Shown: positions 28,283 through 49,776, counted from the stretch's first letter. The stretch: 64,000 nucleotides of DNA from an uncultured bacterium (GCA_963845185.1 CAWJRG010000010.1:32001-96000); one strand, 5' to 3'. Numbers and translations: made by a program. Notes: generated by a model from the letters alone, not told the origin.

Positions 28283-28382
28283 TAAGCAAGAGTTTATTTT
28301 GCAAACCCGTGGGTGTAGCAAAATATTACTCTTGCTTACACCCGTTCCAGTCCGAAGCCGTAAGGCTGAGGACAAGCGGTGT
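28283..28382 (-). ncRNA. structured leader element, copy A (upstream of hpf)
   Basis: ACCGCUUGUC-hairpin-GGACUGGAACGGGU then AAGCAAGAG-UAA-UAUUUUGC...GCAAAAUA-AA-CUCUUGCUU abutting AGGAGG; sigma70 promoter TTGACA-17-TAATTT at 28500-28472. Confidence 0.65.
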
Positions 28383-28643
28383 CTATGGTGTCAGTGCCTT
28401 TTATCTTGTGGTTTTAAGCGTAAATATCAATAAAAACAATATATTCTTAATGTTCTTAATCAATATTCTTAAAATTAACACATAATATTTATTATGTCAA
28501 TTATTTTAAACCTGAAGATTATGTGCCTAAAAATATTCTTTATTTTTTTTTACATTAAAACTCCGTAATTTACAGAGAAACTCCATAGTAATCCGGTTTC
28601 AGACAAAATTATGCTGCAGTCTTACTGGAGCCCCACGGGCAAA

Positions 28644-30273
28644 CAGACTGTGTCATAAGTCTCCGTCCACAGCTGATTGCCGTAGGTAAATTAAAAAATC
28701 TACAAAATATCCTGTTTTATACAAAAAACCTGCGTGGCCCGATGTTTCTTGCTATCCAAGCTGCGCAATCAACTCCCTGACACCTACAATGCTTATCATT
28801 CGAGCCATATTGAAACAACTTGTGAACAACGCCATCTCAGCTCTTGCTCCTTCAAGCCCTCGCAGCAGAAACCCGCTTACTCCAAGATTTCTTTTAATAT
28901 GTCCGAACGGCAACTCTGCTTTCTCTTTTCTCAACTTGAAAATATCCTGCGATTCTTTTGTTTTATATTTTTCTTCAAGCAATATTTTTAGTTCTTCGTT
29001 TTTTAGCCTCTTTATCATTCTGCCCTTCGGAGACCGGGTGCATACTCCAAAGTTTTTACATTCTATACAAGCCTTTTCTTCAGTAGACCTATATACTTCA
29101 AGATTCTTTTTTTTATCAAAACTATGCCATGTCAATATCTGTCCTTCGGGACAAGTGTAGGTATCTTTCTCTGAATCGTATTGGAATTTATCTTTCCCAA
29201 ACGGCCCGATGTCTTTTTTCTCTACCTGTTCCTGAGAAGGTACTATTACATTTATGTCTTTGTCGTGTATCTTTTTCATTTCTTCTATGCTGGCATATCC
29301 GGCATCCCCACACGCATTTTTGCATTTGTTTTCAACTGTTTTCGCCGCTTCTTCAATCTGACTCCCGAATTGCTTGCGGTCATTGCTTTCGTTTACTACG
29401 TCGCTATGCACTATCAGTCCGTGTCTTTCATCTACCACTATCTGCCCGTTATATCCCGCATGCGTTCCCTGACGCCCTTTTACTTTCACGCATTCCTTGT
29501 CTGTCGTATTTATCGACTTTTTCCCCTCGTTCCTTATTTCTTCCATTACCTCTTTTATCTTTGCTTTTAATTTCTCTTTGCCTCTTAATTTTTCCTTCAT
29601 CTTTACCAGTGATTCAGCGCCGCTTTCTTCCTCGTCTATCTTTTCGCTCTCCTTTATTATCGCTTCTATGTTTTCTTCTATCTTCTTTATCCTTTTTTCA
29701 CACCGCTCCATTGTCCATGTGTTATTTATCGACGCGTTCGCCCTTATCTTGCTCCCGTCTACAAATAGCGTGTTTCCTTCTATCAATCCCAGTTTCATAC
29801 ACATCTTTGCGCTTTGTTTCATCACGTTTTTCAACATTTCCCGGTTGTCTTTTCGAAACCTTGCTATTGTTTTATGATCCGGCTTCAATCCTCCCAGCAG
29901 CCACATAAAAGACACATTATGATGCGTCGCTCTTTCCAGTTTTCTCGAACTTCGTGTCCCGTATGAATATCCGTATACCAGCAATTTTATCATAGCCTCA
30001 GGGTCGTATTCCGAATTTCCCATTTGCGTTTCATCTATTACTATCCCAAGTTCTTCCATTTTCAACGCCTTTACGAACGCGTCGTACGCCCTTACAGGAT
30101 CATCTTCCCCTACATATTCTTCTATGCTCTGCGGAAACATTGTCAACTGACTTCGGTCTCCATATCGGTATGCCATTTTTGTCTCCTTTTCTGATGTGTT
30201 TTCTGGAGACATTATACCATTTTTTATCTGTCAAATATCGTTTCAGACTACAAAAACATTATGACACAGTCTG
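28644..30273 (-). mobile_element. IS1182-family insertion sequence, copy 1 (1630 bp)
   Basis: 15-bp terminal inverted repeats CAGACTGTGTCATAA / TTATGACACAGTCTG; near-identical copy at 40401-42030. Confidence 0.93.
28752..30176 (-). CDS. IS1182-family DDE transposase
   Basis: YDP..M.KLLVYGYS.G.RSSRKLE, PDHKTIARFR, VDGSKIRAN, GYNGQ, DAGY, YTCPEG, ELPFGHIK; SD AAGGAG before MAYRY. Confidence 0.95.
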   Translation of the reverse strand: MAYRYGDRSQLTMFPQSIEEYVGEDDPVRAYDAFVKALKMEELGIVIDETQMGNSEYDPEAMIKLLVYGYSYGTRSSRKLERATHHNVSFMWLLGGLKPDHKTIARFRKDNREMLKNVMKQSAKMCMKLGLIEGNTLFVDGSKIRANASINNTWTMERCEKRIKKIEENIEAIIKESEKIDEEESGAESLVKMKEKLRGKEKLKAKIKEVMEEIRNEGKKSINTTDKECVKVKGRQGTHAGYNGQIVVDERHGLIVHSDVVNESNDRKQFGSQIEEAAKTVENKCKNACGDAGYASIEEMKKIHDKDINVIVPSQEQVEKKDIGPFGKDKFQYDSEKDTYTCPEGQILTWHSFDKKKNLEVYRSTEEKACIECKNFGVCTRSPKGRMIKRLKNEELKILLEEKYKTKESQDIFKLRKEKAELPFGHIKRNLGVSGFLLRGLEGARAEMALFTSCFNMARMISIVGVRELIAQLG

Positions 30274-30448
30274 TTTGCCCGTGGTACCAGTTAACAACAC
30301 ACGGCTCGACATCGTCTCGCCGTGAAGTACTAACTAAATACACTGTTGCTCTCGAATACATATAATATGCGACGTCCACCGAAGCAGAACGCATTCAACC
30401 ATGTGCATAGCACGTGGTGTTCTGCGCAGGTGGATAAAATATGAATTT

Positions 30449-31306
30449 TTATATTTGTATATTCAGGAATTTCCTTGCCGCTATGCCGATAAAAAAAGCT
30501 ATAAAACTTACCCCAAGGCATATAAAAATCATTTCCAGGAATATGTGCTTAAATCTTGACTCCTGCACCACCGAAACAAAGAACGAGAAGAAAATTATCA
30601 CGAGCAACACGCCAATCAGCATGAATCCCAGCGCAAAATAGCAATTATTAACCAAAAAATATGGCACTACAAGTATAAGCACCACTATAAGGTAGATAAT
30701 CCCGGTATAAAACGCGGCTTTAAACGGACTCCTGCCCGTATCCTTGCCCTCGGATTTCTGCGACAAATACTCGGCTGCTGACATTGAACACGCTCCGGCA
30801 ATGCCTGTAATAAACCCTGCTGCGCCTATTACTTTTGTATGCTGCAGGGCGAACGTGAATCCAGCCAGCGCCCCTGTGAGTTCTACTATGGCGTCGTTTA
30901 TGCCGAGGACCATAGAGCTTATATATGCCAGCTTTTCCTCTTCAATCATGGCGAGCATGGCGGTTTCATGCCTGTCTTCGTCCTTGATTACCGCGTCGAT
31001 ATTCTTAATAGTACCCTTTAATTTCGAGTAAACGTCCTGCGCGTCTGCTTCGCCGTTTTCCATAAGTTTTGCGGCAAATGTTATGCCGAAAATCCTTCCT
31101 GTCAAAGACAGCAGGAAAATTTTTATCCGGTCAGGCTTCACGTCAACCCCTGAATATTTTCTAAAAAACAGGTAGTGCCTCATCTCGTCGCCTGCGATTT
31201 TTTCAAGGACTTTCCTGTTCTTATCCTTGACTGTCCTTGCAAGATTCATGTAAACGTGATGTTCGGTTATTTCATTTTTCTGGCATTTTAAAACTATATT
31301 GTCCAT
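30449..31306 (-). CDS. rubrerythrin-like domain plus VIT1/CCC1 transporter
   Basis: E..H motifs (DEMRH, DEDRH), VLGINDAIVELTGALAG, SMSAAEYLS. Confidence 0.88.
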   Translation of the reverse strand: MDNIVLKCQKNEITEHHVYMNLARTVKDKNRKVLEKIAGDEMRHYLFFRKYSGVDVKPDRIKIFLLSLTGRIFGITFAAKLMENGEADAQDVYSKLKGTIKNIDAVIKDEDRHETAMLAMIEEEKLAYISSMVLGINDAIVELTGALAGFTFALQHTKVIGAAGFITGIAGACSMSAAEYLSQKSEGKDTGRSPFKAAFYTGIIYLIVVLILVVPYFLVNNCYFALGFMLIGVLLVIIFFSFFVSVVQESRFKHIFLEMIFICLGVSFIAFFIGIAARKFLNIQI

Positions 31307-31324
31307 GGATGGTCCTTTCCAAAG

Positions 31325-32371
31325 TTATGGTATATATACCCTTACATAATCAACGTACATTACCTGGGGGAACGAAGTGGTGGCATCCGGGCTGCCGGGC
31401 CAGTTGCCTCCTGCGGCAACATTCAGCAAAAAGAAAAAAGAATTGTTATATTTCCATGCACCGCTTGCTTCCTGGCTGGATTTTACGGTTTCGTAAAGGT
31501 TGCCGTCCACATAAAACTGGATCTCTCCAGCCTGCCACAATACGCCAAAAACATGGTAATCGTTATGAAACAACTGGCCTCCCGGAAGCGTATATGTATT
31601 TGACCAGTCTGTTCCGTCATGCAAAGAGCCGTGGTTTATTGGCTGGTCAGCGGTATTGCCTATATTTTCCATTATATCTATTTCCCCGCAGGCTGGCCAC
31701 CCGGCACTGTTAATGTCTGTTCCAAGCATCCAGAAAGCCGGCCATATTCCCTGCCCAAAAGGCAGGCGTATGCGGGCAACCATGTAACCGTACTGGAAAC
31801 TCTGCAGCCCCAGTGTCTGCAGCCTCGCGGAAGTATACCTTCCCACTGTGCTGTAGTTGGGGTTTCCGGGCATAGTGTCAATTACAGTAATGGCCAGTGC
31901 CCTTCCGTCAATCGCATTCGAGTCCGATACAATCTGCGCGTTTGTCGTGCTGTTTGTGTAATTCTCGAGCTCATTGTTTCCCCATCCGCCGTCCCCTGTT
32001 TGTGGAGCCCAGTTTGACGCGCTCGGATAACTTCCGACCGGGCCGTTAAATTCATCGCTCCAGTACAGGCTGTAACCTGGCGGGACACCGGGCGGCGTGA
32101 ACGTCGCGGTCAATGTTGCCTGTGCATTAGCTGTCTGCTGGGCGTTAGCTGTCAACTGTGCCTGCGCTGTTGCTGTCGCCTGCGCTGACGGCCCGGCTGT
32201 CTGAAGAAAAACAACAGTTAATGTTGCCTGCGCCTGGGCTGTTGCTGTCATATTGGGCGTAGGTGTCTGTGTCGCTATAGGTGTGGCAGGTGAGAATTTT
32301 TTCGAACAAGTGGCAGCTATAAAAAATGCGATAAGAATAAAAACAGGGATTAAAATTTTTTTCATATACAC
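31325..32371 (-). CDS. lipoprotein with glycoside hydrolase family 16 domain
   Basis: Lipobox AATC, Thr/Ala/Gln linker, WSDEFNG, GIWPAFW, catalytic EIDIME, VDYVRVY. Confidence 0.93.
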   Translation of the reverse strand: MYMKKILIPVFILIAFFIAATCSKKFSPATPIATQTPTPNMTATAQAQATLTVVFLQTAGPSAQATATAQAQLTANAQQTANAQATLTATFTPPGVPPGYSLYWSDEFNGPVGSYPSASNWAPQTGDGGWGNNELENYTNSTTNAQIVSDSNAIDGRALAITVIDTMPGNPNYSTVGRYTSARLQTLGLQSFQYGYMVARIRLPFGQGIWPAFWMLGTDINSAGWPACGEIDIMENIGNTADQPINHGSLHDGTDWSNTYTLPGGQLFHNDYHVFGVLWQAGEIQFYVDGNLYETVKSSQEASGAWKYNNSFFFLLNVAAGGNWPGSPDATTSFPQVMYVDYVRVYIP

Positions 32372-32403
32372 CTCTCGAATCCGTAAATTTATTACTGTAT
32401 ATT

Positions 32404-32432
32404 AGTATATCCCCTGTATATAACCTTGTCAA
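32404..32432 (-). promoter_or_regulatory. sigma70 promoter of the GH16 gene
   Basis: TTGACA-17-TATACT. Confidence 0.7.
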
Positions 32433-32640
32433 TGATGTGTTAAGTTTAAAAAATATACAACAGGCTGGCTGGCAGCCACGGGCGGCATAAGCAACCGGTT
32501 TCATTTTGGGAAAGCCTTCATTTTCAGGCAGATAATAAAACAGAAAAATCAAAAATAAACGATATTTTATGATATAATTGCAGCAAATAGATAAAACATT
32601 TTTTGCTGGCATTCCACGCATTGAATACCGAGGTGAAAAA

Positions 32641-32886
32641 ATGGCATTTGAAATAGGCCACACGGTTGACCTGAATAATGATTTTTATAAAAAATATTTT
32701 GATGATGATGAAGTAATCGGCATAAGCGTAAGGCGTTGGAAAGAATTATTTGAAAAGTATGGAGTAATAGTAAAAGACGCTGTTTATAATGACCATTTAA
32801 AAGAAGATATTGTAAAAATACATTTCGCGCAATATCCGACTACTGATTATACATTTCCGGTGAAGTATTTAAGAAAAGTGGAATAA
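32641..32886 (+). CDS. hypothetical protein (81 aa)
   Basis: SD GAGGTG before ATG 32641. Confidence 0.65.
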   Translation: MAFEIGHTVDLNNDFYKKYFDDDEVIGISVRRWKELFEKYGVIVKDAVYNDHLKEDIVKIHFAQYPTTDYTFPVKYLRKVE

Positions 32887-32932
32887 ATACAACTGACTTG
32901 AGTTGTAACGGACAGTTTAGGGTGGCTTACGG

Positions 32933-33610
32933 TTACCAGACAAAAGGAATAATTCTGAAACGTACTTTCCTGCAATATTCCGTGTATCCCAGCAAATCTC
33001 TTTTTAGAAGCTTTTCCTCGTCAAAAAGCCTCCATACAAGTGCAGGCAGCATAAAGATAATGACCAGCAACCCGCACCACGAACCAAGCGCAATCGGCAT
33101 GCCGATAAGATACATAAGCGAACCGGCGTACATCGGATGCCGTATCACAGCATATGGCCCGGTTGATATTAGTTTTTGATCAGGCGCCACTTCAATAATG
33201 CCAAGTGCGTATGTATTTTCCTTCAATGCAAAAAATACGGCAAGCCAGCCGAGCGAGACAAGCAAGTCCCCTGCGATTGACAGATAGTCAGGCACAAATG
33301 ACCAGTGAAAGCGGTGATCAAGTGCAGGCACAACCAGCAACGCTGCAAACCCTATTGATATGATGGACATTGCAATTTTTTCGCCCAACCCTTTTTCCAG
33401 AGCGGGCCCTGCCGACATGCGCCGTTCCAGGAGTTTTGGGTCTTCCAGCAAAAGATACACGATTATAGCCAGCCCTGCCCCGCCGAACACAGCCAAAAAA
33501 TCCCACGCCTGCCAGTAAATAAGCGTCCATGCCGGAAGCAATATCAGCGCTCCCATGCCGGAAATAACCGCCAGCAGGCTTGCTAATGCCTTTAATTTTA
33601 AGTTTTTCAT
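32933..33610 (-). CDS. isoprenylcysteine carboxyl methyltransferase-family membrane protein
   Basis: ISTGPYAVIRHPMY, EE..L, R.IPFVW. Confidence 0.9.
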   Translation of the reverse strand: MKNLKLKALASLLAVISGMGALILLPAWTLIYWQAWDFLAVFGGAGLAIIVYLLLEDPKLLERRMSAGPALEKGLGEKIAMSIISIGFAALLVVPALDHRFHWSFVPDYLSIAGDLLVSLGWLAVFFALKENTYALGIIEVAPDQKLISTGPYAVIRHPMYAGSLMYLIGMPIALGSWCGLLVIIFMLPALVWRLFDEEKLLKRDLLGYTEYCRKVRFRIIPFVW

Positions 33611-33721
33611 AATAGGATCTCCTTTGGATCCGGCAGCCCTGCTGTAGCCAAGGCAGCCGCCGGGTAGTTTATTTCATTAAACCCGCGGTTGATAAAGGCC
33701 ATTGATAATTTCTTTCGGTTA

Positions 33722-33750
33722 ATTATATCCCCTGTTTACAGCCTTGTCAA
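33722..33750 (-). promoter_or_regulatory. sigma70 promoter, perfect consensus
   Basis: TTGACA-17-TATAAT. Confidence 0.8.
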
Positions 33751-33799
33751 TGTGGCCGCACTTACCAACAATTCAAAATTGAAAATTTATTTATTAATC

Positions 33800-35224: not shown

Positions 35225-35433
35225 CGATAGCGTTTATTTTATTGATTTGATATTGTAAGGGCAATTCACGGTTTGCTCTTGTTTTCAATTGCTAATTTAT
35301 TATATCTTTTCATAAATAATTGTTTTTCTCATTACTATAACCGTGCTCAGTGGCCTTATAGTGCTTTTTTTAACCGCTACCACGCATTTTGTGTTCCCTA
35401 TTGCATTTTATATAAAAGTAAATTTGCATGGTA

Positions 35434-35694
35434 TTATGAAATATTTCGGCCGAATTCCACTTTCGCCCTTAATGAATCTGCTTCCTCTTTTATTTGTTTC
35501 TTAATGCGCTTAACAATACTTTCCAGTCTCGGCCCCGTAGGCACTGTTCCCGTAAGTTCCGTATGTGCCTCTACGGCTTTTCCCAGTCGATTGTCATAAG
35601 CATCATCCTCATCTGTCTTTGCTGTTACAGGCATTGCTACTGCTGCTGCCTCTGCCTGGAACTTTGCCTTTATCATTGTCTTTGCTTTTTTCAT
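35434..35694 (-). CDS. hypothetical protein (86 aa)
   Basis: SD AGAGG, natural composition, co-oriented with rpoZ cluster. Confidence 0.6.
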   Translation of the reverse strand: MKKAKTMIKAKFQAEAAAVAMPVTAKTDEDDAYDNRLGKAVEAHTELTGTVPTGPRLESIVKRIKKQIKEEADSLRAKVEFGRNIS

Positions 35695-35770
35695 TGTTAA
35701 CCTCTTTTTTCTCCCCGCGTTGGCCGCGGGAGAAAGTTTTTAGGAGCCGTGATTCCCTGCCCTGTTTTGA

Positions 35771-35890: not shown

Positions 35891-35933
35891 AATATCACCG
35901 CCTTTTATTTTTACGCTCTTTAAATTTTTATTG

Positions 35934-37949: not shown

Positions 37950-39251
37950 TCACGCAAAGATATAATACAGGATAAAAGCCGCCGCAAGGATATAGATGAG
38001 AAGTGGGACTTCTTTGTATTTGCCTGTTATTAATTTTACTACCGGATATGTAATGACGCCGAAAGCAATTCCGTGGGCAATATTGAATGTCAATGGCGTT
38101 ATGATGAGTGTCATGCACGCCGGCAATGTCTCGGATAGATCCTCCAAATTTAATTTTAAAATATTTTTCAGCATTAAAAACCCAATCATTATAAGGGCAG
38201 GTGCCGCTACCGGGTAAAGCGTGTAATACTTTGACAGGCTTACGCCGGTGCCGACGGACTTTATCAGCGGGTACAGGAACATCGCTGCCAGGAAAAGAAG
38301 GCCGGTTACTGCGTTCGAAAGCCCGGACTTGCCTCTGGTTGACACGCCTCCGGCATTGCTTTCTATGTAGCCGGAAATATTCGACGTGCCCAGGCACGCG
38401 CCAATTGGCGTCCCTATGGCTTCGATAATCAGTACTTTTAATGCACCGGGGTTTTTTGCGTTTACTGCAGAGCCGAGCGTGTCGAAAATATTCATGTAAA
38501 GCAGTATGACCAGGCCAAAAGCAAAATTTAGCAGGTTTAAATGGGTAAAATCAAACTGCATGAACACGGGTTTTATGGATGGCGGCGCGCTTACAATGCC
38601 TGTGAATTTTGCCACGCCTGCAATAGACGCAACCACAAGGGCAATAAGGGTGCCGATTACAATTGATCCTTTAATGTTTCTTAAAAACAGGGCTATTATC
38701 GCCACAAGCCCGGCCAGGGACACAAGCACCTCAGGCGATTTCAAGTCGCCAAGCTGTACAATGGTTAAGGAGTCCGGAACGATTATACCCGACCATTTCA
38801 ATCCCAGCATCGTAATAAAAATCCCTGTACCTGCTACCATGGCGTATCTCAGGGATAAAGGCACGGATTTTGCAACGTAATCCCTGAGTTTAAACGCGGT
38901 CAGGCCGAGAAAAACCAGGCCCTCTATCATGACAAGTGTAATGGCGTGCTGCCATTTCCAGTTCATGGATACGACTATGGTAAATACAAAAATAAGATTC
39001 TCTCCCATAAGCGGCGCGGCTGTTATGGGGAAATTCGCGATAAGCCCCATTAAAATGCACATAAGGCCCGCACCAATGCAGGTTGCGGTCATCACGGCGG
39101 AAAAACTCATGCCTGCCTGCCTTAAGACTGCCGGTTCCATGAAAATAATGTAGGACATTGCCAGGAAAGTGTAGGCGCCTGCGGTGATTTCGTTTTTGAC
39201 TGACGTGTTTTTCTCGTTGAGCCTGAAAAAATCAATAAGGAATTTATTCAT
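37950..39251 (-). CDS. NCS2/AzgA-type purine permease
   Basis: EITAG..TFLAMSYI, AP.MGEN, YIES.AG, PAL...G, IA.GI.FG. Confidence 0.92.
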   Translation of the reverse strand: MNKFLIDFFRLNEKNTSVKNEITAGAYTFLAMSYIIFMEPAVLRQAGMSFSAVMTATCIGAGLMCILMGLIANFPITAAPLMGENLIFVFTIVVSMNWKWQHAITLVMIEGLVFLGLTAFKLRDYVAKSVPLSLRYAMVAGTGIFITMLGLKWSGIIVPDSLTIVQLGDLKSPEVLVSLAGLVAIIALFLRNIKGSIVIGTLIALVVASIAGVAKFTGIVSAPPSIKPVFMQFDFTHLNLLNFAFGLVILLYMNIFDTLGSAVNAKNPGALKVLIIEAIGTPIGACLGTSNISGYIESNAGGVSTRGKSGLSNAVTGLLFLAAMFLYPLIKSVGTGVSLSKYYTLYPVAAPALIMIGFLMLKNILKLNLEDLSETLPACMTLIITPLTFNIAHGIAFGVITYPVVKLITGKYKEVPLLIYILAAAFILYYIFA

Positions 39252-39264
39252 GATATACCTCCCT

Positions 39265-39366
39265 TAGATTTCGTTTACTTTGTCAAGCCGTCAACAGGCG
39301 ATGACAAAGTATTACGAAATCTTGTACCCGCTCCAGTCCGGACCGCAAGGTCCGGACAAGCGGTGC
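39265..39366 (-). ncRNA. structured leader element, copy B (upstream of NCS2 permease)
   Basis: ACCGCUUGUCCGGACC-UUGC-GGUCCGGACUGGAGCGGGU then AGAUUUCG-UAA-UACUUUGUCA...UGACAAAGUA-AA-CGAAAUCU abutting AAGGGAGG. Confidence 0.7.
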
Positions 39367-39620
39367 TTAACATCATGTTTTATTATTTATACTCCATGCT
39401 TTGCATGGACTTGTCGGAGTAATGATTTTGCTTCGCTGTTAACGCTCTCAAAATCAAACTCTGCCAAGCTGCTCAGGTACAAAGGTCCCCAGGCCGAGAG
39501 TAAATAGTAAGATGGACTAGTTCCCATGAGTTATTTAATTTGAAATTGCCCCGAAGTACTGCTGTTTAACCGCGTCACTAAAATAGCAATCTAAAATGGA
39601 TTTCTACTTAATGCTGTTAA

Positions 39621-40367: not shown

Positions 40368-40400
40368 ATCGGCCTCCTCATCATAATAATCCCCGGCTAA

Positions 40401-42030
40401 CAGACTGTGTCATAAGTCTCCGTCCACAGCTGATTGCCGTAGGTAAATTAAAAAATCTACAAAATATCCTGTTTTATACAAAAAACCTGCGTGGCCCGAT
40501 GTTTCTTGCTATCCAAGCTGCGCAATCAACTCCCTGACACCTACAATGCTTATCATTCGAGCCATATTGAAACAACTTGTGAACAACGCCATCTCAGCTC
40601 TTGCTCCTTCAAGCCCTCGCAGCAGAAACCCGCTTACTCCAAGATTTCTTTTAATATGTCCGAACGGCAACTCTGCTTTCTCTTTTCTCAACTTGAAAAT
40701 ATCCTGCGATTCTTTTGTTTTATATTTTTCTTCAAGCAATATTTTTAGTTCTTCGTTTTTTAGCCTCTTTATCATTCTGCCCTTCGGAGACCGGGTGCAT
40801 ACTCCAAAGTTTTTACATTCTATACAAGCCTTTTCTTCAGTAGACCTATATACTTCAAGATTCTTTTTTTTATCAAAACTATGCCATGTCAATATCTGTC
40901 CTTCGGGACAAGTGTAGGTATCTTTCTCTGAATCGTATTGGAATTTATTTTTCCCAAACGGCCCGATGTCTTTTTTCTCTACCTGTTCCTGAGAAGGTAC
41001 TATTACATTTATGTCTTTGTCGTGTATCTTTTTCATTTCTTCTATGCTGGCATATCCGGCATCCCCACACGCATTTTTGCATTTGTTTTCAACTGTTTTC
41101 GCCGCTTCTTCAATCTGACTCCCGAATTGCTTGCGGTCATTGCTTTCGTTTACTACGTCGCTATGCACTATCAGTCCGTGTCTTTCATCTACCACTATCT
41201 GCCCGTTATATCCCGCATGCGTTCCCTGACGCCCTTTTACTTTCACGCATTCCTTGTCTGTCGTATTTATCGACTTTTTCCCCTCGTTCCTTATTTCTTC
41301 CATTACCTCTTTTATCTTTGCTTTTAATTTCTCTTTGCCTCTTAATTTTTCCTTCATCTTTACCAGTGATTCAGCGCCGCTTTCTTCCTCGTCTATCTTT
41401 TCGCTCTCCTTTATTATCGCTTCTATGTTTTCTTCTATCTTCTTTATCCTTTTTTCACACCGCTCCATTGTCCATGTGTTATTTATCGACGCGTTCGCCC
41501 TTATCTTGCTCCCGTCTACAAATAGCGTGTTTCCTTCTATCAATCCCAGTTTCATACACATCTTTGCGCTTTGTTTCATCACGTTTTTCAACATTTCCCG
41601 GTTGTCTTTTCGAAACCTTGCTATTGTTTTATGATCCGGCTTCAATCCTCCCAGCAGCCACATAAAAGACACATTATGATGCGTCGCTCTTTCCAGTTTT
41701 CTCGAACTTCGTGTCCCGTATGAATATCCGTATACCAGCAATTTTATCATAGCCTCAGGGTCGTATTCCGAATTTCCCATTTGCGTTTCATCTATTACTA
41801 TCCCAAGTTCTTCCATTTTCAACGCCTTTACGAACGCGTCGTACGCCCTTACAGGATCATCTTCCCCTACATATTCTTCTATGCTCTGCGGAAACATTGT
41901 CAACTGACTTCGGTCTCCATATCGGTATGCCATTTTTGTCTCCTTTTCTGATGTGTTTTCTGGAGACATTATACCATTTTTTATCTGTCAAATATCGTTT
42001 CAGACTACAAAAACATTATGACACAGTCTG
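40401..42030 (-). mobile_element. IS1182-family insertion sequence, copy 2
   Basis: Same terminal inverted repeats; flanked by 3-bp direct repeat TAA; transposase ORF 40509-41933 differs from copy 1 at one visible residue (D/N). Confidence 0.93.
40509..41933 (-). CDS. IS1182-family DDE transposase
   Basis: Identical to the copy-1 protein except GKNKF versus GKDKF. Confidence 0.95.
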   Translation of the reverse strand: MAYRYGDRSQLTMFPQSIEEYVGEDDPVRAYDAFVKALKMEELGIVIDETQMGNSEYDPEAMIKLLVYGYSYGTRSSRKLERATHHNVSFMWLLGGLKPDHKTIARFRKDNREMLKNVMKQSAKMCMKLGLIEGNTLFVDGSKIRANASINNTWTMERCEKRIKKIEENIEAIIKESEKIDEEESGAESLVKMKEKLRGKEKLKAKIKEVMEEIRNEGKKSINTTDKECVKVKGRQGTHAGYNGQIVVDERHGLIVHSDVVNESNDRKQFGSQIEEAAKTVENKCKNACGDAGYASIEEMKKIHDKDINVIVPSQEQVEKKDIGPFGKNKFQYDSEKDTYTCPEGQILTWHSFDKKKNLEVYRSTEEKACIECKNFGVCTRSPKGRMIKRLKNEELKILLEEKYKTKESQDIFKLRKEKAELPFGHIKRNLGVSGFLLRGLEGARAEMALFTSCFNMARMISIVGVRELIAQLG

Positions 42031-42161
42031 TAAAGCCGTGGTATACATATATTATATTATTTAAAAATTTATAAATCAATAGGTTTTTTGCCTTTTTATG
42101 CGGCAAACCCTATAAAACCTATTTACTAACATATCGTTTGTTTTGTCAAACCGTCGCAAAT

Positions 42162-42518: not shown

Positions 42519-42649
42519 AACCCCTCACCTTTCTTCATTTTCCATTCTCTATTTGGCATTCATTGCCCATTCTGTATCCGGAATTCGGAATTCGTTATTC
42601 AAAAAATTAAATCTGGAATACTGAGTTTCAAATCCAGAATCCTAAAGAA

Positions 42650-42814
42650 CTATATCCCGTATTTCTTTTTAATGTCTTTTTCCGCTTCGAGCCAGTCTGA
42701 CAGGGCATCGCCGGGCTTTTTATTTGCGATTCTTTTCTTGAAATTTTCCCCTGCGAGCTTGCGGATTTCTTCCTGAAATGCCTCTAAGTTCGGTTTCTTT
42801 TTTTCTTGTGCCAT
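42650..42814 (-). CDS. DUF2934-like small protein (54 aa, not in ORF track)
   Basis: Own translation MAQEKKKPNLEAFQEEIRKLAGENFKKRIANKKPGDALSDWLEAEKDIKKKYGI; paralog of 43227-43403. Confidence 0.8.
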   Translation of the reverse strand: MAQEKKKPNLEAFQEEIRKLAGENFKKRIANKKPGDALSDWLEAEKDIKKKYGI

Positions 42815-42832
42815 TATTCTTCGACCATCCTT

Positions 42833-43213
42833 TCAATGAGAGTTTTTTTTAAATATTTCCTCGACTTTCTCGATAAGCTTTTCAGGCGAAAACGGCTTTA
42901 TTACGTACAAGTCTGCTCCTGATTTAATTCCTATTTCAATGTCCATTGCCATGCCCTTTACGGTCAGTAGTATTACTGGTATTGCAGAAGTAGCTTTGTT
43001 CTTTTTCAGCTGTCTGCAGGCTTCGATGCCATCCATTTCCGGCATCATCACGTCCAGGATGACCATATCAGGTTTTGTCTTTTCCACCTCTGATATTGCC
43101 TGCCTGCCGTTTGCCGCTGTATAAATCTGATACTTGTCCGATAGAATATCCGATAACGTCGAAAGAATGATTGGCTCGTCGTCGGCAATTACGATTTTCT
43201 TTTTATCCGCCAT
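42833..43213 (-). CDS. single-domain response regulator receiver
   Basis: IADDE, LDVMMPEMDG, T, KPF. Confidence 0.93.
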   Translation of the reverse strand: MADKKKIVIADDEPIILSTLSDILSDKYQIYTAANGRQAISEVEKTKPDMVILDVMMPEMDGIEACRQLKKNKATSAIPVILLTVKGMAMDIEIGIKSGADLYVIKPFSPEKLIEKVEEIFKKNSH

Positions 43214-43226
43214 TTTTATTTTCTCC

Positions 43227-43403
43227 TTATAAGCTGTATTTCCTTTTTATTTCTTTCTCTGCTTCGAGCCAGTCGGATAAAGCGTCACCCGGTTCGTTGC
43301 CGACAGTTCTTCTGTCATAAATTTTCTGTGCGCGTTTGCGGATTTCGTCCCAGAGTGGTTCAAGAGACGGTTTCTGTTGCGGTTCCTTTGCTTCTTTTAC
43401 CAT
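43227..43403 (-). CDS. DUF2934-like small protein
   Basis: EIRKRAQKIY..R...PGDALSDWLEAE. Confidence 0.8.
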   Translation of the reverse strand: MVKEAKEPQQKPSLEPLWDEIRKRAQKIYDRRTVGNEPGDALSDWLEAEKEIKRKYSL

Positions 43404-43529
43404 TGGCATTCTCCATTTATCCTTACCTTGTACCGGTCTCTTCGCGCCGGTACAGAACAATAAGCTTGGACGATAATAATTTATGTTTTTCTCTCCATAT
43501 TTGCAATCAGTGAGCTTAAGAACCTCCCT

Positions 43530-43690
43530 TGATATCGTTTGTTTTGTCGAGCCGTCATTATGGCAGTCGAATAGTCCGGTGGACTATTTGACGGGTAGTT
43601 TCCATAAGCTATCATATAAAAGCTACCCAGCAAAACATTACAATATCATGTATCTCAAGTCCGAAGCCACCAGGCTGAAGACAAGCGGTA
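43530..43690 (-). ncRNA. structured leader element, copy C (expanded, partly degenerate)
   Basis: ACCGCUUGUCUUCAGCC-UGGU-GGCUUCGGACUUGAG, then UGAUAUUG-UAA-UGUUUUG...CAAAACA-AA-CGAUAUCA then AGGGAGG; extra hairpins in the loop. Confidence 0.6.
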
Positions 43691-43699
43691 TTTATATAT

Positions 43700-43728
43700 A
43701 ATATACATTAAAAGTGAAATTTTTTCAA
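43700..43728 (-). promoter_or_regulatory. sigma70 promoter firing into element copy C
   Basis: TTGAAA-17-TATATT; predicted start a few nt before ACCGCUUGUC. Confidence 0.6.
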
Positions 43729-43809
43729 GTTTTTTTTGTTACACCTTAGGATATACAATAAATTCCCCTATTTTTCTTTATTAAACGGGGTTGAAACCAA
43801 TAGACAGGG

Positions 43810-44802
43810 CTATTTCTTGATTGTAATTATGTGGGCTGCGATAAATAATAAAATCCCTATAAAAAGGAATATATAATAATTTTGTTCGTAATTTTCTATG
43901 GATTTTGTTTTTGTATCGTTTTTTGTCATATTGCTTATGTCTGCCTTAATGTTTTGGAAGGCGTTCGGGTCAATCGCGCTGTAATATTTCCCGCCTGTTA
44001 TTCCCGCTATTTGCTTCAGTTCGGAGTCGTCCATTTTTGTGATAACCACCTGCCCGTTGTATGTTTTATAATACACCCTCCCAAATGCATCCTGACCGTC
44101 CGGCATGGGACCGCCCTGTTCTGTGCCTGCGCCGACCGCGTAAATAGGTATGCCTTCTTTCTGCGCCAGTCGTGCCGCGTCTATCGGCGATATGCCGGAT
44201 AGATTTTCGCCGTCTGTAATAAGAAGCAATACCCGTGATTTCGCGCCTTTATCTATGAGGCGCTGCACGCCTTCTTTTATCGCGTCGCCTATAGCTGTCC
44301 CCTCCTTTGGAAGCATGCCCGGATAAATATTATCAAGTATTAAATCAACTGTTTCGTAATCCAGCGTGAGCGGGCACTGCACAAAAGTGTCTTGCTCAAA
44401 CGCGATTATCCCTATCCTGTCCCCGTCTAAAAGGTTTAAAAAACCCTTAAGCCCCTGCCTGACAATTTCCATCCTGTTTGGCTTCAGGTCCACAGCGAAC
44501 ATGCTCTCGGAAGTGTCGAGGAGCACCATTATATCAATGCCTTTGACTTGCTCGTCGCTCTTTATTGGCGCGCCGTATGGCCTGGCCAGCGCAATGACAA
44601 AAAAAATAAAAGCGACAAAGTAGCATAAATATTTGATTATTGCCCTTGTCCACGAAACGGAAAAAAGAAGTTTTCCCTTTGTCTTGGCGTCCATGAACCT
44701 GTCGTAATTGGCAAGGATTTTATATGCCTTGTAAAAAAAGTACGCGAACAAAGGTACGACAGCTATGAGTAACTTTAATAAATTTTCATTCCCGAAATTC
44801 AC
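43810..44802 (-). CDS. vWA-domain membrane protein (BatB-like)
   Basis: ALARP, MIDAS DTSESM, CPLT.D, ITDGE. Confidence 0.9.
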   Translation of the reverse strand: MNFGNENLLKLLIAVVPLFAYFFYKAYKILANYDRFMDAKTKGKLLFSVSWTRAIIKYLCYFVAFIFFVIALARPYGAPIKSDEQVKGIDIMVLLDTSESMFAVDLKPNRMEIVRQGLKGFLNLLDGDRIGIIAFEQDTFVQCPLTLDYETVDLILDNIYPGMLPKEGTAIGDAIKEGVQRLIDKGAKSRVLLLITDGENLSGISPIDAARLAQKEGIPIYAVGAGTEQGGPMPDGQDAFGRVYYKTYNGQVVITKMDDSELKQIAGITGGKYYSAIDPNAFQNIKADISNMTKNDTKTKSIENYEQNYYIFLFIGILLFIAAHIITIKK

Positions 44803-45806
44803 GCAATCACCCTCGTATACTTAAAAACCTCCAGAAGTAACGCCAGCGCAAGCAGGATGAAACCCAGCCATAAAAAATATTCAAAATTGTCGATGTATTT
44901 GTTGTATGTCTTTACTTTTATGTCCTGCTTCTGGAGTTTCCCGATGGCGTAGTAAATATCGGCCAAAGCCTTTTCATTAGTAGCCCTGAAGTATTGCCCG
45001 CCTGTTATATCCGCAATTGCTTTTAAGGTCTTTTCATCCGGTTCTTCCCATCTCAGGGGCATGCCGAACTGGTTCACAAGCTGGCCGCGCCTTCCAAAAT
45101 TATCGGTTCCTATCATGGGCGCGCCTCCTTTTTGCCCTATGCCTATGGTGTATATCTTGATATTCTTGTACCCTGCGACTCTCGCCGCTTCCAAAGGCGC
45201 TATCCCCCTGTTATTCACGCCGTCCGTAGCCAAAATTATAACTTTTGAGCCTTTTGAATTTTCCAGACGGTTGACAGAAGTAATTATCGCGTCACCCATT
45301 GCCGTTCCGTCAATGCTTACCGTATGTAAATCCAGCTGGCTTATAAAACTCTTTACTATTTCATAATCCGCCGTCAAAGGGCACTGCGTAAAACTGCTTC
45401 CGGCAAATACTACAAGCCCTACCCTGTCTGTTTTAAGCCCTTCCACGAATTTTTCCGCCACTGCTTTCGCCGCTTCTACCCTGCTTGGCTTCAGGTCCTG
45501 CGCCTGCATGCTTCCTGAAAAGTCGAGCGCCAGTATAATATCAATGCCTTTTATGTTTTCCAGCGACTCTTTTTGTATTTGCTGCGGCCTCAAAACCGCG
45601 GTTATCAGCAGTATCAGGCCAATAATTTTAAGGGCATCAGGCAGGAAAATAAGGAAATTTCCAGCTCTGCTTTTTAATTTATTCAGGGAAATCATGTTTG
45701 AAAAAGCCAGCTTTTTAAACTTGAAATCCCTCAACACCGTAAATACCAGATAGGCAACAACAGCGATTACAAGGTAAGGCAGAAGTTTCTCATTGGCGAA
45801 TCTCAT
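44799..45806 (-). CDS. vWA-domain membrane protein (BatA-like)
   Basis: GIDIILALDFSGSM, DRVGLVVF, GTAMGDAI, TDG.NN.G, TGGQYFRA. Confidence 0.92.
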   Translation of the reverse strand: MRFANEKLLPYLVIAVVAYLVFTVLRDFKFKKLAFSNMISLNKLKSRAGNFLIFLPDALKIIGLILLITAVLRPQQIQKESLENIKGIDIILALDFSGSMQAQDLKPSRVEAAKAVAEKFVEGLKTDRVGLVVFAGSSFTQCPLTADYEIVKSFISQLDLHTVSIDGTAMGDAIITSVNRLENSKGSKVIILATDGVNNRGIAPLEAARVAGYKNIKIYTIGIGQKGGAPMIGTDNFGRRGQLVNQFGMPLRWEEPDEKTLKAIADITGGQYFRATNEKALADIYYAIGKLQKQDIKVKTYNKYIDNFEYFLWLGFILLALALLLEVFKYTRVIA

Positions 45807-46690
45807 CTTTCAGACCTCCGCCTTTCCCTCATCTTAAAAAAGGTTATAAGGTTATTGATGAAAGGCTCCCCGCAGTTCAATGTTATTGCGTCGATTCCCA
45901 TGGACTTGAATGTTTTGAAAAGGCTGTCGTCTGCCCTTTTTGAATCCTTTTTGAATTTTTCCATTGATTTTTTGTCCGACGTGTCAACCCAGGAAGTGGT
46001 ATTTGTTTCCGGGTCGTAAAATGGGAAGTAACCCATGTCTGGGATTTCCGCATCGCGCCTGTCGCGAAGCACGACCGCGATGACGTCGTTGTGGTATTTC
46101 AATACCTTGAGAGCATTCTGGAAATTTTTGCTGTCGTAAAAATCCGATATCACGAATACCGTGCTGCGTTTTTTCAATATATGGCTCAGGTAAACCAGGG
46201 CATTGCCTATGTCGGTTTTATTGTCCTTTTGTTTGTGATAAAGCACTTCCCTTATTATCCTTAAAACGTGCTTTTTGCCTTTTTTGGCGGCAACGTATTT
46301 TTCTACGCCTGTCGAAAACCCCAGAAATCCAACCCGGTCGTTGTTCATATGTGCGGCAAATCCGAGCGCTGCCACGAATTCGAACATGAGTTCCCTTTTC
46401 AAATATTCGCTCGACCCAAAATCGAGCGAGCCGCTCATGTCAGCCGCGAACATAACCTGCAATTCGCGCTCCTCGATAAATGTTTTTACGTAGGGTATAT
46501 TAGTGCGTGCGGTAACGTTCCAGTCAATGGTCCTCACGTCGTCGCCCTCTGCGTACTCCCGCACCTCGGTAAATTCGATGCCGCGCCCCTTAAAAGAAGA
46601 CAAATATTCTCCCTGGAGCACGGTGTCCACAAGGTGCCGCGTGGTTATTTCGATTCTTTTGATTTTTTTCAGGATGTCTTTTGATATCAT
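45803..46690 (-). CDS. DUF58 family protein
   Basis: FKGRGIEF.EVREY..GDDVRTIDWNVTAR, EERE, ISDF. Confidence 0.95.
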   Translation of the reverse strand: MISKDILKKIKRIEITTRHLVDTVLQGEYLSSFKGRGIEFTEVREYAEGDDVRTIDWNVTARTNIPYVKTFIEERELQVMFAADMSGSLDFGSSEYLKRELMFEFVAALGFAAHMNNDRVGFLGFSTGVEKYVAAKKGKKHVLRIIREVLYHKQKDNKTDIGNALVYLSHILKKRSTVFVISDFYDSKNFQNALKVLKYHNDVIAVVLRDRRDAEIPDMGYFPFYDPETNTTSWVDTSDKKSMEKFKKDSKRADDSLFKTFKSMGIDAITLNCGEPFINNLITFFKMRERRRSER

Positions 46691-46800
46691 GGTTTTGTTT
46701 TATGCAGCCGCCTGACTGCCCCGTAAAGCAAAACAAAAATCGTATTGGGTATTATTAGGCAACTCCCGCGGCTGGACTTATTTCCTTTCATCCCGCCGGA

Positions 46801-47784
46801 TCACGGGACTTTTACCTTGTTGACAATCTGCTTTATGACATCGTCGGTTGTTATTTCCTCTGCCTCTGCCTCGTAAGACAGGATTATCCTGTGCCTTAAG
46901 ACGTCGAATATGACTTCCTTTACGTCGTCCGGCGACGCGTAGCCGTTGCCGTTGATGAAAGCATTTGCCTTGGCGGCAAGGATGAGGTTTATCGACGCCC
47001 TCGGCGAGCACCCGTATTCTATTATGTGTCCGAGATCCAGCCTGTAGTCCTGCGGTTTTCTTGTTGCAAACACTATGTCAATCACGTATTGTTTTATTTC
47101 CTTGTCCACGTATATCGAATCTACTATTTTTCTCATGTCAAGGATGTCTTTTGGTTTCAGGATTACGTCGACCGGTATTTCCTCGCCTGTGGTCATCCTG
47201 TTTACTATTTCCAGTTCCTCGACTTTGTCAGGATAATCAATTACTGTCTTCATTAAAAACCTGTCCACCTGCGCCTCGGGCAGTGCATACGTGCCTTCGG
47301 TCTCTATGGGGTTTTGTGTGGCTAGCACTATAAACGGCTCTTCGAGCTTGAATGTTTTTTCTGCTATGGTCACCTGCTTTTCCTGCATGGCTTCCAGCAG
47401 GGCAGACTGCACCTTTGCCGGTGCCCTGTTTATCTCGTCGGCAAGTATTATATTTGCGAATATTGGCCCGAGCGATATGCTGAAATCGCCTGTCCTCGCG
47501 TTGTAGATCCTTGTGCCTGTCAGGTCTGCGGGCAATAAGTCGGGCGTAAATTGTATGCGCGAAAATTTAGCCTGTATTGTCTGCGCAAGGGTTTTCACGC
47601 CCAGGGTTTTTGCAAGCCCGGGCACGCCTTCCAGCAAAACATGCCCCCTGCACAGCAGTCCCATTACAAGCGCGCGAAGCATGCCTTTCTGCCCTACTAT
47701 TACTTTTTCCACTTCATTAAAAACTTCGCTTAGCTTTTCTGATTTTTCTTTGTCTTTCTCCGACAGTTTTACGTTCTTGCTCAT
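46801..47784 (-). CDS. moxR: MoxR-family AAA+ ATPase
   Basis: EGVPGLAKT, RIQFTPDLLP.D, DEINRAPAKVQSALLEAMQE, ATQNPIE.EGTY.LPEAQ.DRF. Confidence 0.96.
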   Translation of the reverse strand: MSKNVKLSEKDKEKSEKLSEVFNEVEKVIVGQKGMLRALVMGLLCRGHVLLEGVPGLAKTLGVKTLAQTIQAKFSRIQFTPDLLPADLTGTRIYNARTGDFSISLGPIFANIILADEINRAPAKVQSALLEAMQEKQVTIAEKTFKLEEPFIVLATQNPIETEGTYALPEAQVDRFLMKTVIDYPDKVEELEIVNRMTTGEEIPVDVILKPKDILDMRKIVDSIYVDKEIKQYVIDIVFATRKPQDYRLDLGHIIEYGCSPRASINLILAAKANAFINGNGYASPDDVKEVIFDVLRHRIILSYEAEAEEITTDDVIKQIVNKVKVP

Positions 47785-47899
47785 TTTTTACCTCCGCCAG
47801 TCATAGTATATAAATTGAATTATTTTCCGTTTTATTTTTCACATTTGCGTTATTGTTTAAAAATGCGGTGTGTAGAAACATTGCTTTTATGCCTATATT

Positions 47900-48634
47900 T
47901 TAGTTTTCTATAACTACTATCATCCCCTGCTTGGCATACTTTGAAAGTTCCATGATTTCGATGTTTTTAAGCCTTATGCAGCCTGTCGTCGCGTCGTGCC
48001 CAAGCGCTTTTTCGTCGTTTGTGCCGTGTATGCCTATGGACGATCCTGGCGCGCCGCAGTTTTTTCTGTCTTTTTTTGCTTTTTCGTAATTTTTTTTGTC
48101 GTCTGCGTTTGGGTAATTTATCCTCATAAATACAGGGCCGTAGGCATTCATGCCAAGGTCGTCTTTTGTGCCCCATTTTTTATGCCCGTCAACTGCGCGC
48201 ATCAGGACCTTGTTCATTTTTTCAAGGCTTGCTTTTCCCTCAACATATTCCTTGTAAAGCATGTCGTAAAGCTTCTTTTTTGTTGCGTATTTTTTCGATT
48301 TTTTATCAGCGCTGTTGAGCTCGTCTTTCATGTTTTTCAGGTTCTCCGGCTCTTCGTACTGCCATATCTGCGTTATTTTATAAACTCCCTCGGGCGTCCT
48401 GTTGTCGTTTTCGCATATCTTTTTCCCGTTTTCCATCCCTGTCGCTATCTTGCATTCCATTATATCATCCAAATCGCCGTTAATAAGGTAAAGCTTTTTT
48501 TCACCTTTTTTTATATAGATAATATATTTGTCTTTATTGTTCTCAAAGTATTTTTTCAAAAAAGAAAAATTTTTCGCGTTTATAACCGCAGTCAAAAAAA
48601 CAGCGCAAAGTATCACGCCAAAGATTCTTTTCAT
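47900..48634 (-). CDS. L,D-transpeptidase (YkuD family)
   Basis: D.RTPEG.Y, INYPN, IGIHGT...TTGCIRL. Confidence 0.88.
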   Translation of the reverse strand: MKRIFGVILCAVFLTAVINAKNFSFLKKYFENNKDKYIIYIKKGEKKLYLINGDLDDIMECKIATGMENGKKICENDNRTPEGVYKITQIWQYEEPENLKNMKDELNSADKKSKKYATKKKLYDMLYKEYVEGKASLEKMNKVLMRAVDGHKKWGTKDDLGMNAYGPVFMRINYPNADDKKNYEKAKKDRKNCGAPGSSIGIHGTNDEKALGHDATTGCIRLKNIEIMELSKYAKQGMIVVIEN

Positions 48635-48635
48635 T

Positions 48636-49664
48636 TTAATCAAGCACCTCGATTTTCAAATCAGGCCTTTTGATGATTTCAAATTTCACGCCTGCTTCCC
48701 TGAATAAATCCTCGTACGTTTTGTCGGGATAGTAGCTGCTTGTGACAAACCTCTTTATCTTCGCGTTGACTGCCATCTTTGCGCATATTATACAAGGTGA
48801 ATGTGTGCAATAAATAGTCGCGCCATCGGTGCTGGTCCCGTGCAAAGCTGCCTGTATTATGGCGTTTTGCTCCGCATGTACCGCCCTGCATATTTCATGC
48901 CTTGTACCCGAAGCTATTCCTTCCTGATCGCGCAGGCAGCCCAGATCAATGCAGTCTTTTACGCCTGACGCAGCCCCGTTGTACCCCGAACTTATCAAAT
49001 GGTTGTTTTTCACTATTACAGCTCCCACGTGGTGTCTAAGGCACGTAGACCTTTCTGCAACCAAACATGCCATTTTCATAAAATATTCATCCCAGCTCGG
49101 CCTTGTGTATGGTTTATAATTTAATTCCTTCAATATTGCCTCGATTTTTCCGAAAAGCTCCACGGGCGTGCCGTTGTTTTCTATTTTATAATCTGCCTTT
49201 TCAAGGCAATTTGCGAGTTGTTGCGCCTTGTCGTCTGCAGAATTTTCTTTTTCTTCCTTTTTCTTGAATTCCTCAAGTGTTTCGCCGTCGCCTGGCCTTC
49301 CTCTTTTTTTCGCGCGCTCAAAACGTGTTTTTATGTCTGCCGTAACTCCTATCAGCTTAAAACTTTTCAGGTTCGCGCGCAGTTCCTCGATTTCATAAGG
49401 GTTCCTGATGCTGTCAATCGCGGCCTGGGGCGAATTTTTTATTTTGGTGACCGTCCTTTTAGCCAGCACCTGCGGGCCCTCCTTTTCCCTAAGTTCGTTG
49501 CCTATTGCTATCAGGTTGTCGCGCGTTGGGTCCAGCCCTCTTTTTTTCGCCTCGCCTCTTATGATGTCGGAAAGCGAAAAAGCGATAAATTTCTGCTTTT
49601 CAACAAGGTATTTTATTGCCTCGCCTTTTCCTGATGCGTTTGGTCCTGTGAATCCTAAAAACAT
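48636..49664 (-). CDS. P-loop kinase-like domain fused to dCMP deaminase
   Basis: N-terminal [16 protein letters not shown]-terminal [31 protein letters not shown]. Confidence 0.92.
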
Positions 49665-49676
49665 GTTTAGTCTCCT

Positions 49677-49776
49677 TAGATATCGTTTGTTTTGTCAAGC
49701 TTACTGACGCAGACAAAACATTACGCGATCTTATACCCGCTCGAGTCTGAGGCCATCAGGCCGAAGACAAGCGGTA
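49677..49776 (-). ncRNA. structured leader element, copy D (upstream of dCMP deaminase fusion)
   Basis: UACCGCUUGUCUUCGGCC-UGAU-GGCCUCAGACUCGAGCGGGUA then AGAUCGCG-UAA-UGUUUUGUC...GACAAAACA-AA-CGAUAUCU abutting AAGGAG. Confidence 0.7.

Follow-up and report, generated by a model that had tools for sequence, protein, structure and literature searches.

The 64,000-nucleotide (nt) window analysed here, CAWJRG010000010.1:32001-96000 of the uncultured bacterium GCA_963845185.1 (a genome labelled G000 below; 3.50 Mb, 11 contigs, 99.4% complete), carries on its minus strand four copies of a two-domain element of about 100 nt that is predicted to fold strongly. We consider it probable that this element is a real structured RNA module, one that is deployed both as a portable leader fused to Shine-Dalgarno (SD) sequences and as a stand-alone RNA, and that is not a riboswitch. 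The module belongs to an undescribed family restricted to a single order; it is small, shows strong covariation and has no counterpart in Rfam.

The anatomy of the module is simple. Domain 1 is a hairpin with two helices, P1 (RY-ACC / GGU-R-Y) and P2 (GUCC / GGAC), and between them an asymmetric loop that hardly varies, N-C-U-Y / U-K-G-A-N-C-G, and domain 2 is a long two-part stem with an invariant AA/A internal loop set within G-U-A-A ... A-A-C. For 48 G000 paralogs, RNAalifold gave 28 pairs, 20 of which have changes on both sides; 93.8% of the cells pair, whereas sliding the partners by 1-3 columns leaves 30-44%, and 0 of 500 shuffles match the observed values. Because paralogs that fall into subfamilies are not independent, the count was repeated on a second set of 30 copies, all taken from metagenome records and genomes other than G000. 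In this set, whose alignment was fitted to the model and so leans towards the structure, 94.8% of the cells are paired (33-48% when slid), 22 of the 28 pairs have changed on both sides, and once more none of 500 shuffles matches. The two bases before ACC and the two after GGGU also covary (G-C 24 and A-U 15; U-A 27 and C-G 15), and loop positions 10 and 40 covary in a non-canonical manner, in that 87 of 93 distinct rows have a purine with U10, 15 of 15 have a pyrimidine with C10, and C10-G40 does not occur at all. Folds of single sequences have z scores of -4.3 to -9.4. The invariant unpaired letters are CUY / UKGANCG and AA / A, with GGA found in the SD alone. Docking on the ribosome by base pairing was considered, but against the 16S rRNA of the same genome the invariant stretches had no complementarity of 7 nt or more, in what was a weak test with very few N-free windows.

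The second line of evidence is placement. A profile search of the genome with nhmmer returned 193 matches, 189 after merging, and 146 of 150 candidates scored were matches to the covariance model (CM), a figure that is a lower bound because the CM scored those 150 candidates only. In 87 of the 134 copies having both ends, an SD comes next and after it an open reading frame (ORF) of at least 40 amino acids (aa); the SD starts 0-5 nt after the stem (0-3 nt in 85 of the 87), and the start codon follows at a spacing of 3-12 nt overall, 6-10 nt in 77 cases. The remainder comprises 11 copies followed by the next unit, 16 with an SD-like tract and no ORF at the proper spacing, 3 with an ORF and no SD, and 17 others; about nine of the 16 are insertion-bearing copies with a misplaced end anchor, which visibly end in an SD and ATG further on. 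With genes called crudely as ORFs of 100 aa or more, the copies between co-directional genes number 95 in the sense orientation and 6 antisense; a further 16 stand between divergent and 7 between convergent genes, and 13 are inside called ORFs. Copies are also intercistronic, 29 of 102 starting no more than 30 nt after the stop of the upstream gene. Some copies have -10/-35-like boxes 6-40 nt upstream, with no promoter at a constant distance, and a strict terminator-like hairpin with a T-run was found within 80 nt downstream of 0 of the 134 copies. The SD itself is predicted by thermodynamics to be unpaired with a probability of 0.58, as against 0.49 in 300 control genes (p 0.003). In addition to single copies, the genome has doublets and a head-to-tail array of 7 near-identical units behind an extended -10-like box. 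Among the 17 others, on contigs C1, C5 and C9, are sub-families of which one, of about six copies, ends in a GTTTTCAATTTTCAAT-like sequence instead of an SD, and one, of three further copies, precedes a repeated AGGGATGGAGCGTATTAAGAAATTTCTATGGCATG start region.

An earlier account of the window, made from its letters alone and referred to here as the sequence-only reading, had reported four minus-strand copies, A to D, each ending at an SD. All four are where it placed them and end in this way, scoring 62-110 bits (E-values 7e-12 to 6e-23) with the CM, which was built from 48 copies; as a total for the genome, four falls well short of the at least 146 counted. The stem pairings that it quoted are correct, with two mismatches in the lower stem of copy D and one G-U in that of copy C, and the internal loop GUAA / AAC, which it called invariant, has the same letters in 48 of 48 aligned copies. 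Domain 1 is a hairpin as it described, but P1 extends 2 nt further 5' than the ACC at which it began the domain, and these 2 nt covary within RY-ACC / GGU-R-Y. An SD directly serving a co-oriented gene holds for copies A, B and D; the SD of copy C meets a 5-codon ORF only. The downstream names (hpf, a purine permease, a DUF2934/receiver locus and dCMP deaminase) agree with Pfam. With the module bounded by the first P1 pair and the last lower-stem pair, the features are as follows.

28284-28382, minus strand: copy A, two-domain module (CM 107.3 bits; minimum free energy (MFE) -42.2 kcal/mol, z -4.25)
~28337-28382 and 28284-28335, minus strand: domain 1 and domain 2 of copy A
28278-28283, minus strand: SD AGGAGG adjoining copy A
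27719-28267, minus strand: hpf ORF, with its ATG at 28265-28267 (Pfam Ribosomal_S30AE and C-terminal domain)
28460-28510, minus strand, approximate: hpf promoter region, TTGACA ... TGtTAATTT, a consensus-level reading (kept in relative L118)
39266-39366, minus strand: copy B module (CM 109.5 bits; z -8.24)
39258-39265, minus strand: SD AAGGGAGG adjoining copy B
37950-39251, minus strand: permease ORF after copy B (Pfam Xan_ur_permease)
39412-39466, plus strand: inverted hairpin upstream of copy B, domain 2 alone (model positions 46-100 on the opposite strand; 34.5 bits, E 1.7e-5)
43530-43691, minus strand: copy C module, with the 3' side of domain 1 eroded (CM 61.9 bits)
43566-43628, minus strand: 63-nt two-hairpin insertion in the apical part of copy C domain 2
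43523-43529, minus strand: SD-like AGGGAGG after copy C, followed by just the 5-codon ORF and no long ORF at SD spacing
43227-43460, minus strand: DUF2934 ORF downstream of copy C, starting ~63 nt further on (Pfam)
42833-43213, minus strand: receiver gene downstream of copy C (Pfam)
49678-49777, minus strand: copy D module, intercistronic (CM 104.8 bits)
49788-50603: ABC-3 permease gene, whose stop lies 10 nt before the start of copy D
49672-49677, minus strand: SD AAGGAG adjoining copy D
48636-49664, minus strand: AAA/dCMP-deaminase fusion ORF after copy D (Pfam)

The predicted hpf promoter lies outside the module, ~80-95 nt upstream of copy A. The 63-nt insertion of copy C is optional: it recurs in about ten other copies, its hairpins being GGGUAGC...CUACCC and GUCAAAUAGUCC...GGACUAUUYGAC, and it may represent either an additional domain of the RNA or a small repeat nested within it. 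The inverted hairpin at 39412-39466 (+) is followed by a GTCCATGC-AAAG-GCATGGAG hairpin, and similar composites are found at sites on G000 contigs C10 and C9; the recurrence of this composite at several places indicates that modules of the element can nest and invert. Elsewhere in the window, a 486-aa transposase ORF occurs twice, at 28752-30212 (-) and 40509-41969 (-), and the Pfam scores of the two copies (DUF772 with DDE_Tnp_1_6 / DDE_Tnp_1) are nearly the same; one of them is directly upstream of the hpf promoter region, and the insertion sequence is also present on other contigs. Two long-arm tRNA genes lie at 56582-56665 (+; 50.1 bits) and 57296-57384 (+; 57.6 bits).

The sequence-only reading had offered two interpretations, of which the first was a riboswitch or protein-binding leader tying nucleotide status to ribosome hibernation. 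In riboswitch form, domain 1 would be an aptamer that binds a small molecule or ion, either nucleotide-related or global, and domain 2 with the SD would be the expression platform. A conserved asymmetric loop between covarying helices does look like an aptamer, and of the four genes in the window three have to do with nucleotide metabolism or ribosome hibernation. This first interpretation, with or without a riboswitch, is nonetheless not supported, as the nucleotide theme arises from sampling four of more than 100 leaders. When 37 downstream proteins were scanned with Pfam they fell into unrelated families with no common theme, including ATP synthase a, GlpK, GatC, HtrA, ABC ATPases, a receiver, GpmA, a radical-SAM enzyme and a ferredoxin, and more than 85 downstream genes in all share no theme. 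In addition, no alternative pairing is predicted that would hide the SD, which is predicted to be open rather than sequestered, no terminator stands between module and gene that would offer a choice with an antiterminator, up to 7 units stand in tandem, stand-alone units have no gene to regulate, and the hpf orthologues of 22 relatives manage without the module. Unrelated downstream genes together with tandem and gene-less copies rule out a nucleotide riboswitch for practical purposes, and a riboswitch of any kind appears to us very improbable. The second interpretation, a dispersed structured repeat that supplies or adjoins SD sites, is supported: 87 of the 134 complete copies are placed before an SD and an ORF.

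The claim of novelty made by the same reading also stands, as no Rfam 15 family reaches its gathering score with the module. At that threshold the whole window yielded two tRNAs only, and no purine, ZTP, ykkC, c-di-GMP, c-di-AMP, T-box or raiA match. Permissive scans of copies A and B likewise gave no riboswitch family. Their best result was for domain 1 of copy A, which at 28337-28385 (-) partially matches sX5 with 21 bits (RF02224, an sRNA, or small RNA, of Xanthomonadaceae; gathering score 50); the match is absent for copy B and for relatives and is probably due to chance. Scans of 17 loci with stand-alone copies from relatives returned terminator-like noise only, and a literature search showed no description of the module among the papers listed.

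A comparison of orthologous loci shows that the module was gained at hpf, atpB and glpK specifically in the G000 lineage. With the CM filters off, it was found at 0 of 22 hpf, 0 of 21 atpB and 0 of 16 glpK loci of the same order, a few of which have short upstream flanks, whereas each of the three G000 loci exceeds 100 bits in the same test. Most of the relatives' hpf loci have a promoter-like TTGACA...TG-n-TAtttt box and a short leader, preceded by a gene end that resembles the C-terminus of RpoN. Among metagenome hpf loci, 1 of 17 has the module: L118, a 96-kb metagenome record and the closest of the 17 (protein 86% identical), where it sits in the same place. Between G000 and L118 the promoter is conserved and the ~80-nt spacer in the 5' untranslated region (5'-UTR) has largely diverged, no more than three positions, all in the apical loop, distinguish domain 2 and the SD, and P2 of domain 1 has been swapped for another pairing variant that is also present among G000 paralogs. 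This pattern fits either purifying selection or homogenisation between copies.

Beyond these loci, the CM found the module in 10 of 23 same-order genomes, with 1-17 scored matches each as against at least 146 in G000, the only member of its family among the genomes compared, and in 0 of 17 genomes from other orders of the phylum. A structure-anchored pattern run over ~185,000 species genomes gave 28 loci, 22 of them in five same-order relatives, several of which are named 'candidate division FCPU426 bacterium'; the module is confined to the one order. The six other matches were singletons (Actinomycetes, Gammaproteobacteria, Acidobacteriaceae, Desulfomonilaceae, Bacilli and Azotimanducaceae) that score at most 10.3 bits with the CM and are put down to chance.

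The form of the module differs between families. G001 (family f2) has SD-fused copies as in G000. In three genomes of family f10 (G014, G023 and G019), nearly all of the copies compared begin directly after a -10-like box and have domain 2 followed by an A-run with a GC-rich hairpin, and units stand in tandem in G014. A syntenic locus is shared by four f10 genomes (G014, G020, G023 and G019; loci L023, L024, L025 and L026), in the order radC (divergent), one or two units, an A-run with a terminator-like hairpin, and a convergent TPR gene, a long perfect hairpin preceding the units in three of the four; neither of the two G000 radC loci has an adjoining module. Judged from these sequence signals, the sister-family units are candidates for independent small-RNA-like genes running from promoter to terminator. 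G003 and G021 have tandem hairpins of domain 2 only. In stand-alone copies of the sister family (L102:199-340, L106:370-517 and most of those in G014 and G023), the apical loop of domain 2 leaves an anti-SD-like UCCUC unpaired, which G000 copies do not have.

Among the copies outside G000, G-U pairs outnumber A-C mismatches by 31:5 on the sense strand, as expected under selection on the sense RNA. Several observations nonetheless weigh against the reading of a functional RNA module. In G000 the relation is reversed (G-U 38, A-C 70), and the absence of an RNA wobble signature from these expanded copies is a real caveat. For G000 copies a slight advantage in stability is predicted for the antisense strand (54 copies against 32, Wilcoxon p 0.0003), and in other genomes, too, the antisense MFE is the lower one (23 vs 6 copies). 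Inverted modules consisting of domain 2 only, nested insertions and near-identical tandem units look like repeat dynamics at the DNA level. The promoters and terminators of the relatives are consensus-level readings, and in several of the 'terminators' the better, long T-run is on the opposite strand, so that convergent genes may be the ones they serve. The gain in SD accessibility is modest, and the SD of copy B pairs with its coding region in the MFE fold. Finally, the invariant loops contain no GGA-type CsrA motif, so that the analogy with the Csr system drawn below covers logic only.

Some of these points would be accounted for if the element were a selfish mobile DNA repeat resembling miniature inverted-repeat transposable elements (MITEs), palindrome-associated transposable elements (PATEs) or REPINs, whose hairpins matter as DNA, whose position at SDs reflects target preference and which has no function as RNA. 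The copy explosion (at least 146 in G000, 1-17 scored matches in relatives) is in keeping with such a repeat, as are the confinement of the hpf, atpB and glpK gains to the G000 lineage, the near-identical subfamilies, the tandem arrays, the nested 63-nt insertions, the inverted domain-2 modules, and the excess of A-C over G-U in copies whose antisense folds equally well or better. The mobile machinery expected of a PATE or REPIN, however, is missing: Y1 transposase (IS200/IS605, RAYT; PF01797) and TnpB (PF07282) have 0 matches in G000, a 99.4%-complete genome, whereas positive controls match in 6 of 14 and 8 of 14, and a PATE/REPIN identity was rejected on this basis. Neither are there terminal inverted repeats (TIRs), as the 5' end (RY-ACC-N-CUUGUC) and the 3' end (AAAC with the lower-stem strand) are not reverse complements and each pairs within its own domain. 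The 2 nt upstream of ACC, considered at first as a target duplication, covary with the 3' strand of P1 and hence belong to the structure. Many copies in random orientation or between convergent genes had been named in advance as marks of a MITE or of REP (repetitive extragenic palindromic) sequences; the copies are many, but their orientation is far from random (95:6) and just 7 lie between convergent genes. The selfish-repeat explanation also sits poorly with an SD at 0-3 nt in 85 of 87 leader copies, with putative promoter-to-terminator units at a syntenic locus in relatives, with the sense-strand bias of the relatives' copies and with the non-canonical covariation in the loop. We therefore regard it as unlikely, and continue to favour the structured RNA module.

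How the module might have spread is a separate matter. G000, alone among the 24 genomes of its order, has six copies of a group II intron with identically scoring matches to reverse transcriptase (RT; RVT_1, 142.1 bits each). Three of the loci were scanned (C9:699195-702884, L166; C9:810136-813825, L168; C9:843977-847666, L169), and RF02005 and RF00029 were above gathering in all three; the other RT matches are at C10:383780-384469, C10:832145-832834 and C11:62007-62696. All six introns directly follow '...GGAGGCGGWTTATGA', between the SD and start codon and the signal-peptide-like rest of a gene, and one of them stands in an initiation region behind a module copy. At three of the six, there is no module within 1.5 kb. 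The 5' flanks are shared over ~16 nt only, which gives no sign of long exon co-conversion, and RVT_1 had no match in 22 of the 23 same-order relatives, where fragmented metagenome-assembled genomes may hide such repeats. RNA-mediated spread by a group II intron homing to SD-ATG sites could be entertained as a lead only.

Abundant structured repeats are known from other bacteria, such as BOX in pneumococcus, ERIC/IRU in enterobacteria and Correia/CREE in Neisseria, which are co-transcribed and can alter mRNA stability and processing. BOX, ERIC, CREE and bcr1 resemble MITEs, having TIRs or a modular boxA-B-C layout; they occur in either orientation, mostly 3' of genes or anywhere between them, and are not known to be welded to an SD. 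In contrast, our module has an orientation ratio of 95:6 and an SD offset of 0-3 nt. For bcr1 of the Bacillus cereus group, two independent stem-loops have been drawn (PMC3184786). The closest thing described, compared here by its description, is Neisseria REP2 (CREN), which the same source presents as a family of dispersed intergenic repeats of 120-180 bp with no TIRs, two stem-loops predicted at the RNA level and a ribosome-binding site (RBS), positioned immediately upstream of ORFs, with ~26 copies that have their own promoter and ATG and mark a co-regulated gene set; its origin and route of spread are given there as unknown, and the IR-A/IR-B elements of Borrelia plasmids are said to be similar (PMC3184786). 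By that description, the module likewise lacks TIRs, has two internal stem-loops and an RBS at its 3' end, and lies directly before ORFs. It differs in that the leader form does not include a promoter, which lies beyond it at varying distances and is lacking for intercistronic copies, that the ATG is outside the unit (spacing 3-12 nt), that at least 146 copies precede unrelated genes, and that relatives have stand-alone small-RNA-like units.

Other systems share parts of this arrangement. By analogy with Csr/Rsm, in which CsrA is sponged by CsrB/RsmY/RsmZ, one unit would stand near the SDs of many mRNAs and would also be multimerised in candidate free small RNAs, although here the unit is a 100-nt two-domain fold and not a GGA hairpin. 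PATEs and REPINs of the IS200/IS605 type are also gene-less, strand-specific hairpin repeats without TIRs or target duplications, but G000 has no Y1_Tnp or TnpB, and on either strand of every contig the module is oriented like the gene after it; unlike REP-type repeats, it is not found in either orientation at will and is not enriched between convergent genes. Lastly, the sibling sRNAs LhrC (Listeria) and Cuckoo/CcsR resemble the sister-family units in comprising several near-identical units, predicted to run from promoter to terminator and in part tandem, and the UCCUC in the apical loop of sister-family copies resembles their anti-SD seeds. Those RNAs, however, are not known to serve also as SD-fused cis leaders, and the G000 copies lack a CU-rich loop.

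It remains to consider what the module does. One explanation is that it is a passive structural leader, an insulator or stabiliser that keeps the SD open in a fixed context or that blocks or directs RNases, with no trans-acting factor or signal involved. The very stable autonomous fold reflected in the z scores, an SD that directly follows the last helix and has a higher predicted accessibility than in controls, and the use of the module both behind promoters and within operons are all in keeping with such a role. Yet a passive hairpin has no need of invariant loops and a non-canonical pair that are kept across the order while every helix changes, it leaves stand-alone and tandem copies without an SD or gene with no role, and the effect on accessibility is small. 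We find a passive leader doubtful as a sufficient explanation.

The analysis has shown the fold with its covariation, the placement and orientation, the gain in one lineage and the stand-alone forms, whereas transcription, binding of a factor, any effect on expression and the route of spread are inferred. As a leader, the module sits behind a gene's own promoter, from which it would be transcribed, or forms the whole spacer between two genes of an operon. With the portable RNA module as the preferred reading, we postulate that it would fold autonomously and leave the adjacent SD exposed. The invariant loops may then provide a docking site for one trans-acting factor, most likely a protein, and sharing this factor would place translation initiation or mRNA fate of many genes under joint control, while free-standing and tandem copies would compete for it, in a logic like that of Csr/Rsm. 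This mechanism of a common factor recognising the loops, with free copies as competitors, is a tentative proposal that we rate as rather less probable than not. Taken as a whole, the account in which a portable cis-acting module, a common factor and competing free copies act together has about an even chance of being the best explanation. It is tempting to go further and to speculate on a global post-transcriptional network, in which the module on about a hundred mRNAs is the handle for a single binder, free sRNAs and arrays are decoys, and spread has been aimed at translation-initiation regions, an extension that we consider improbable as it stands.

If a shared handle of this kind were real, it would represent a new way of putting a large and arbitrary set of genes under one control, and a natural counterpart of the 5'-UTR insulators of synthetic biology. 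Sister lineages also provide a rare opportunity to compare one structured RNA in two guises, as a candidate gene for a free small RNA and as a leader in cis, a comparison that bears on the origin of cis-regulatory RNAs and on the spread of repeats such as REP2. Although its host is uncultured, a module so compact, so strongly covarying and without an Rfam match lends itself readily to definition as a new RNA family and to work in vitro.

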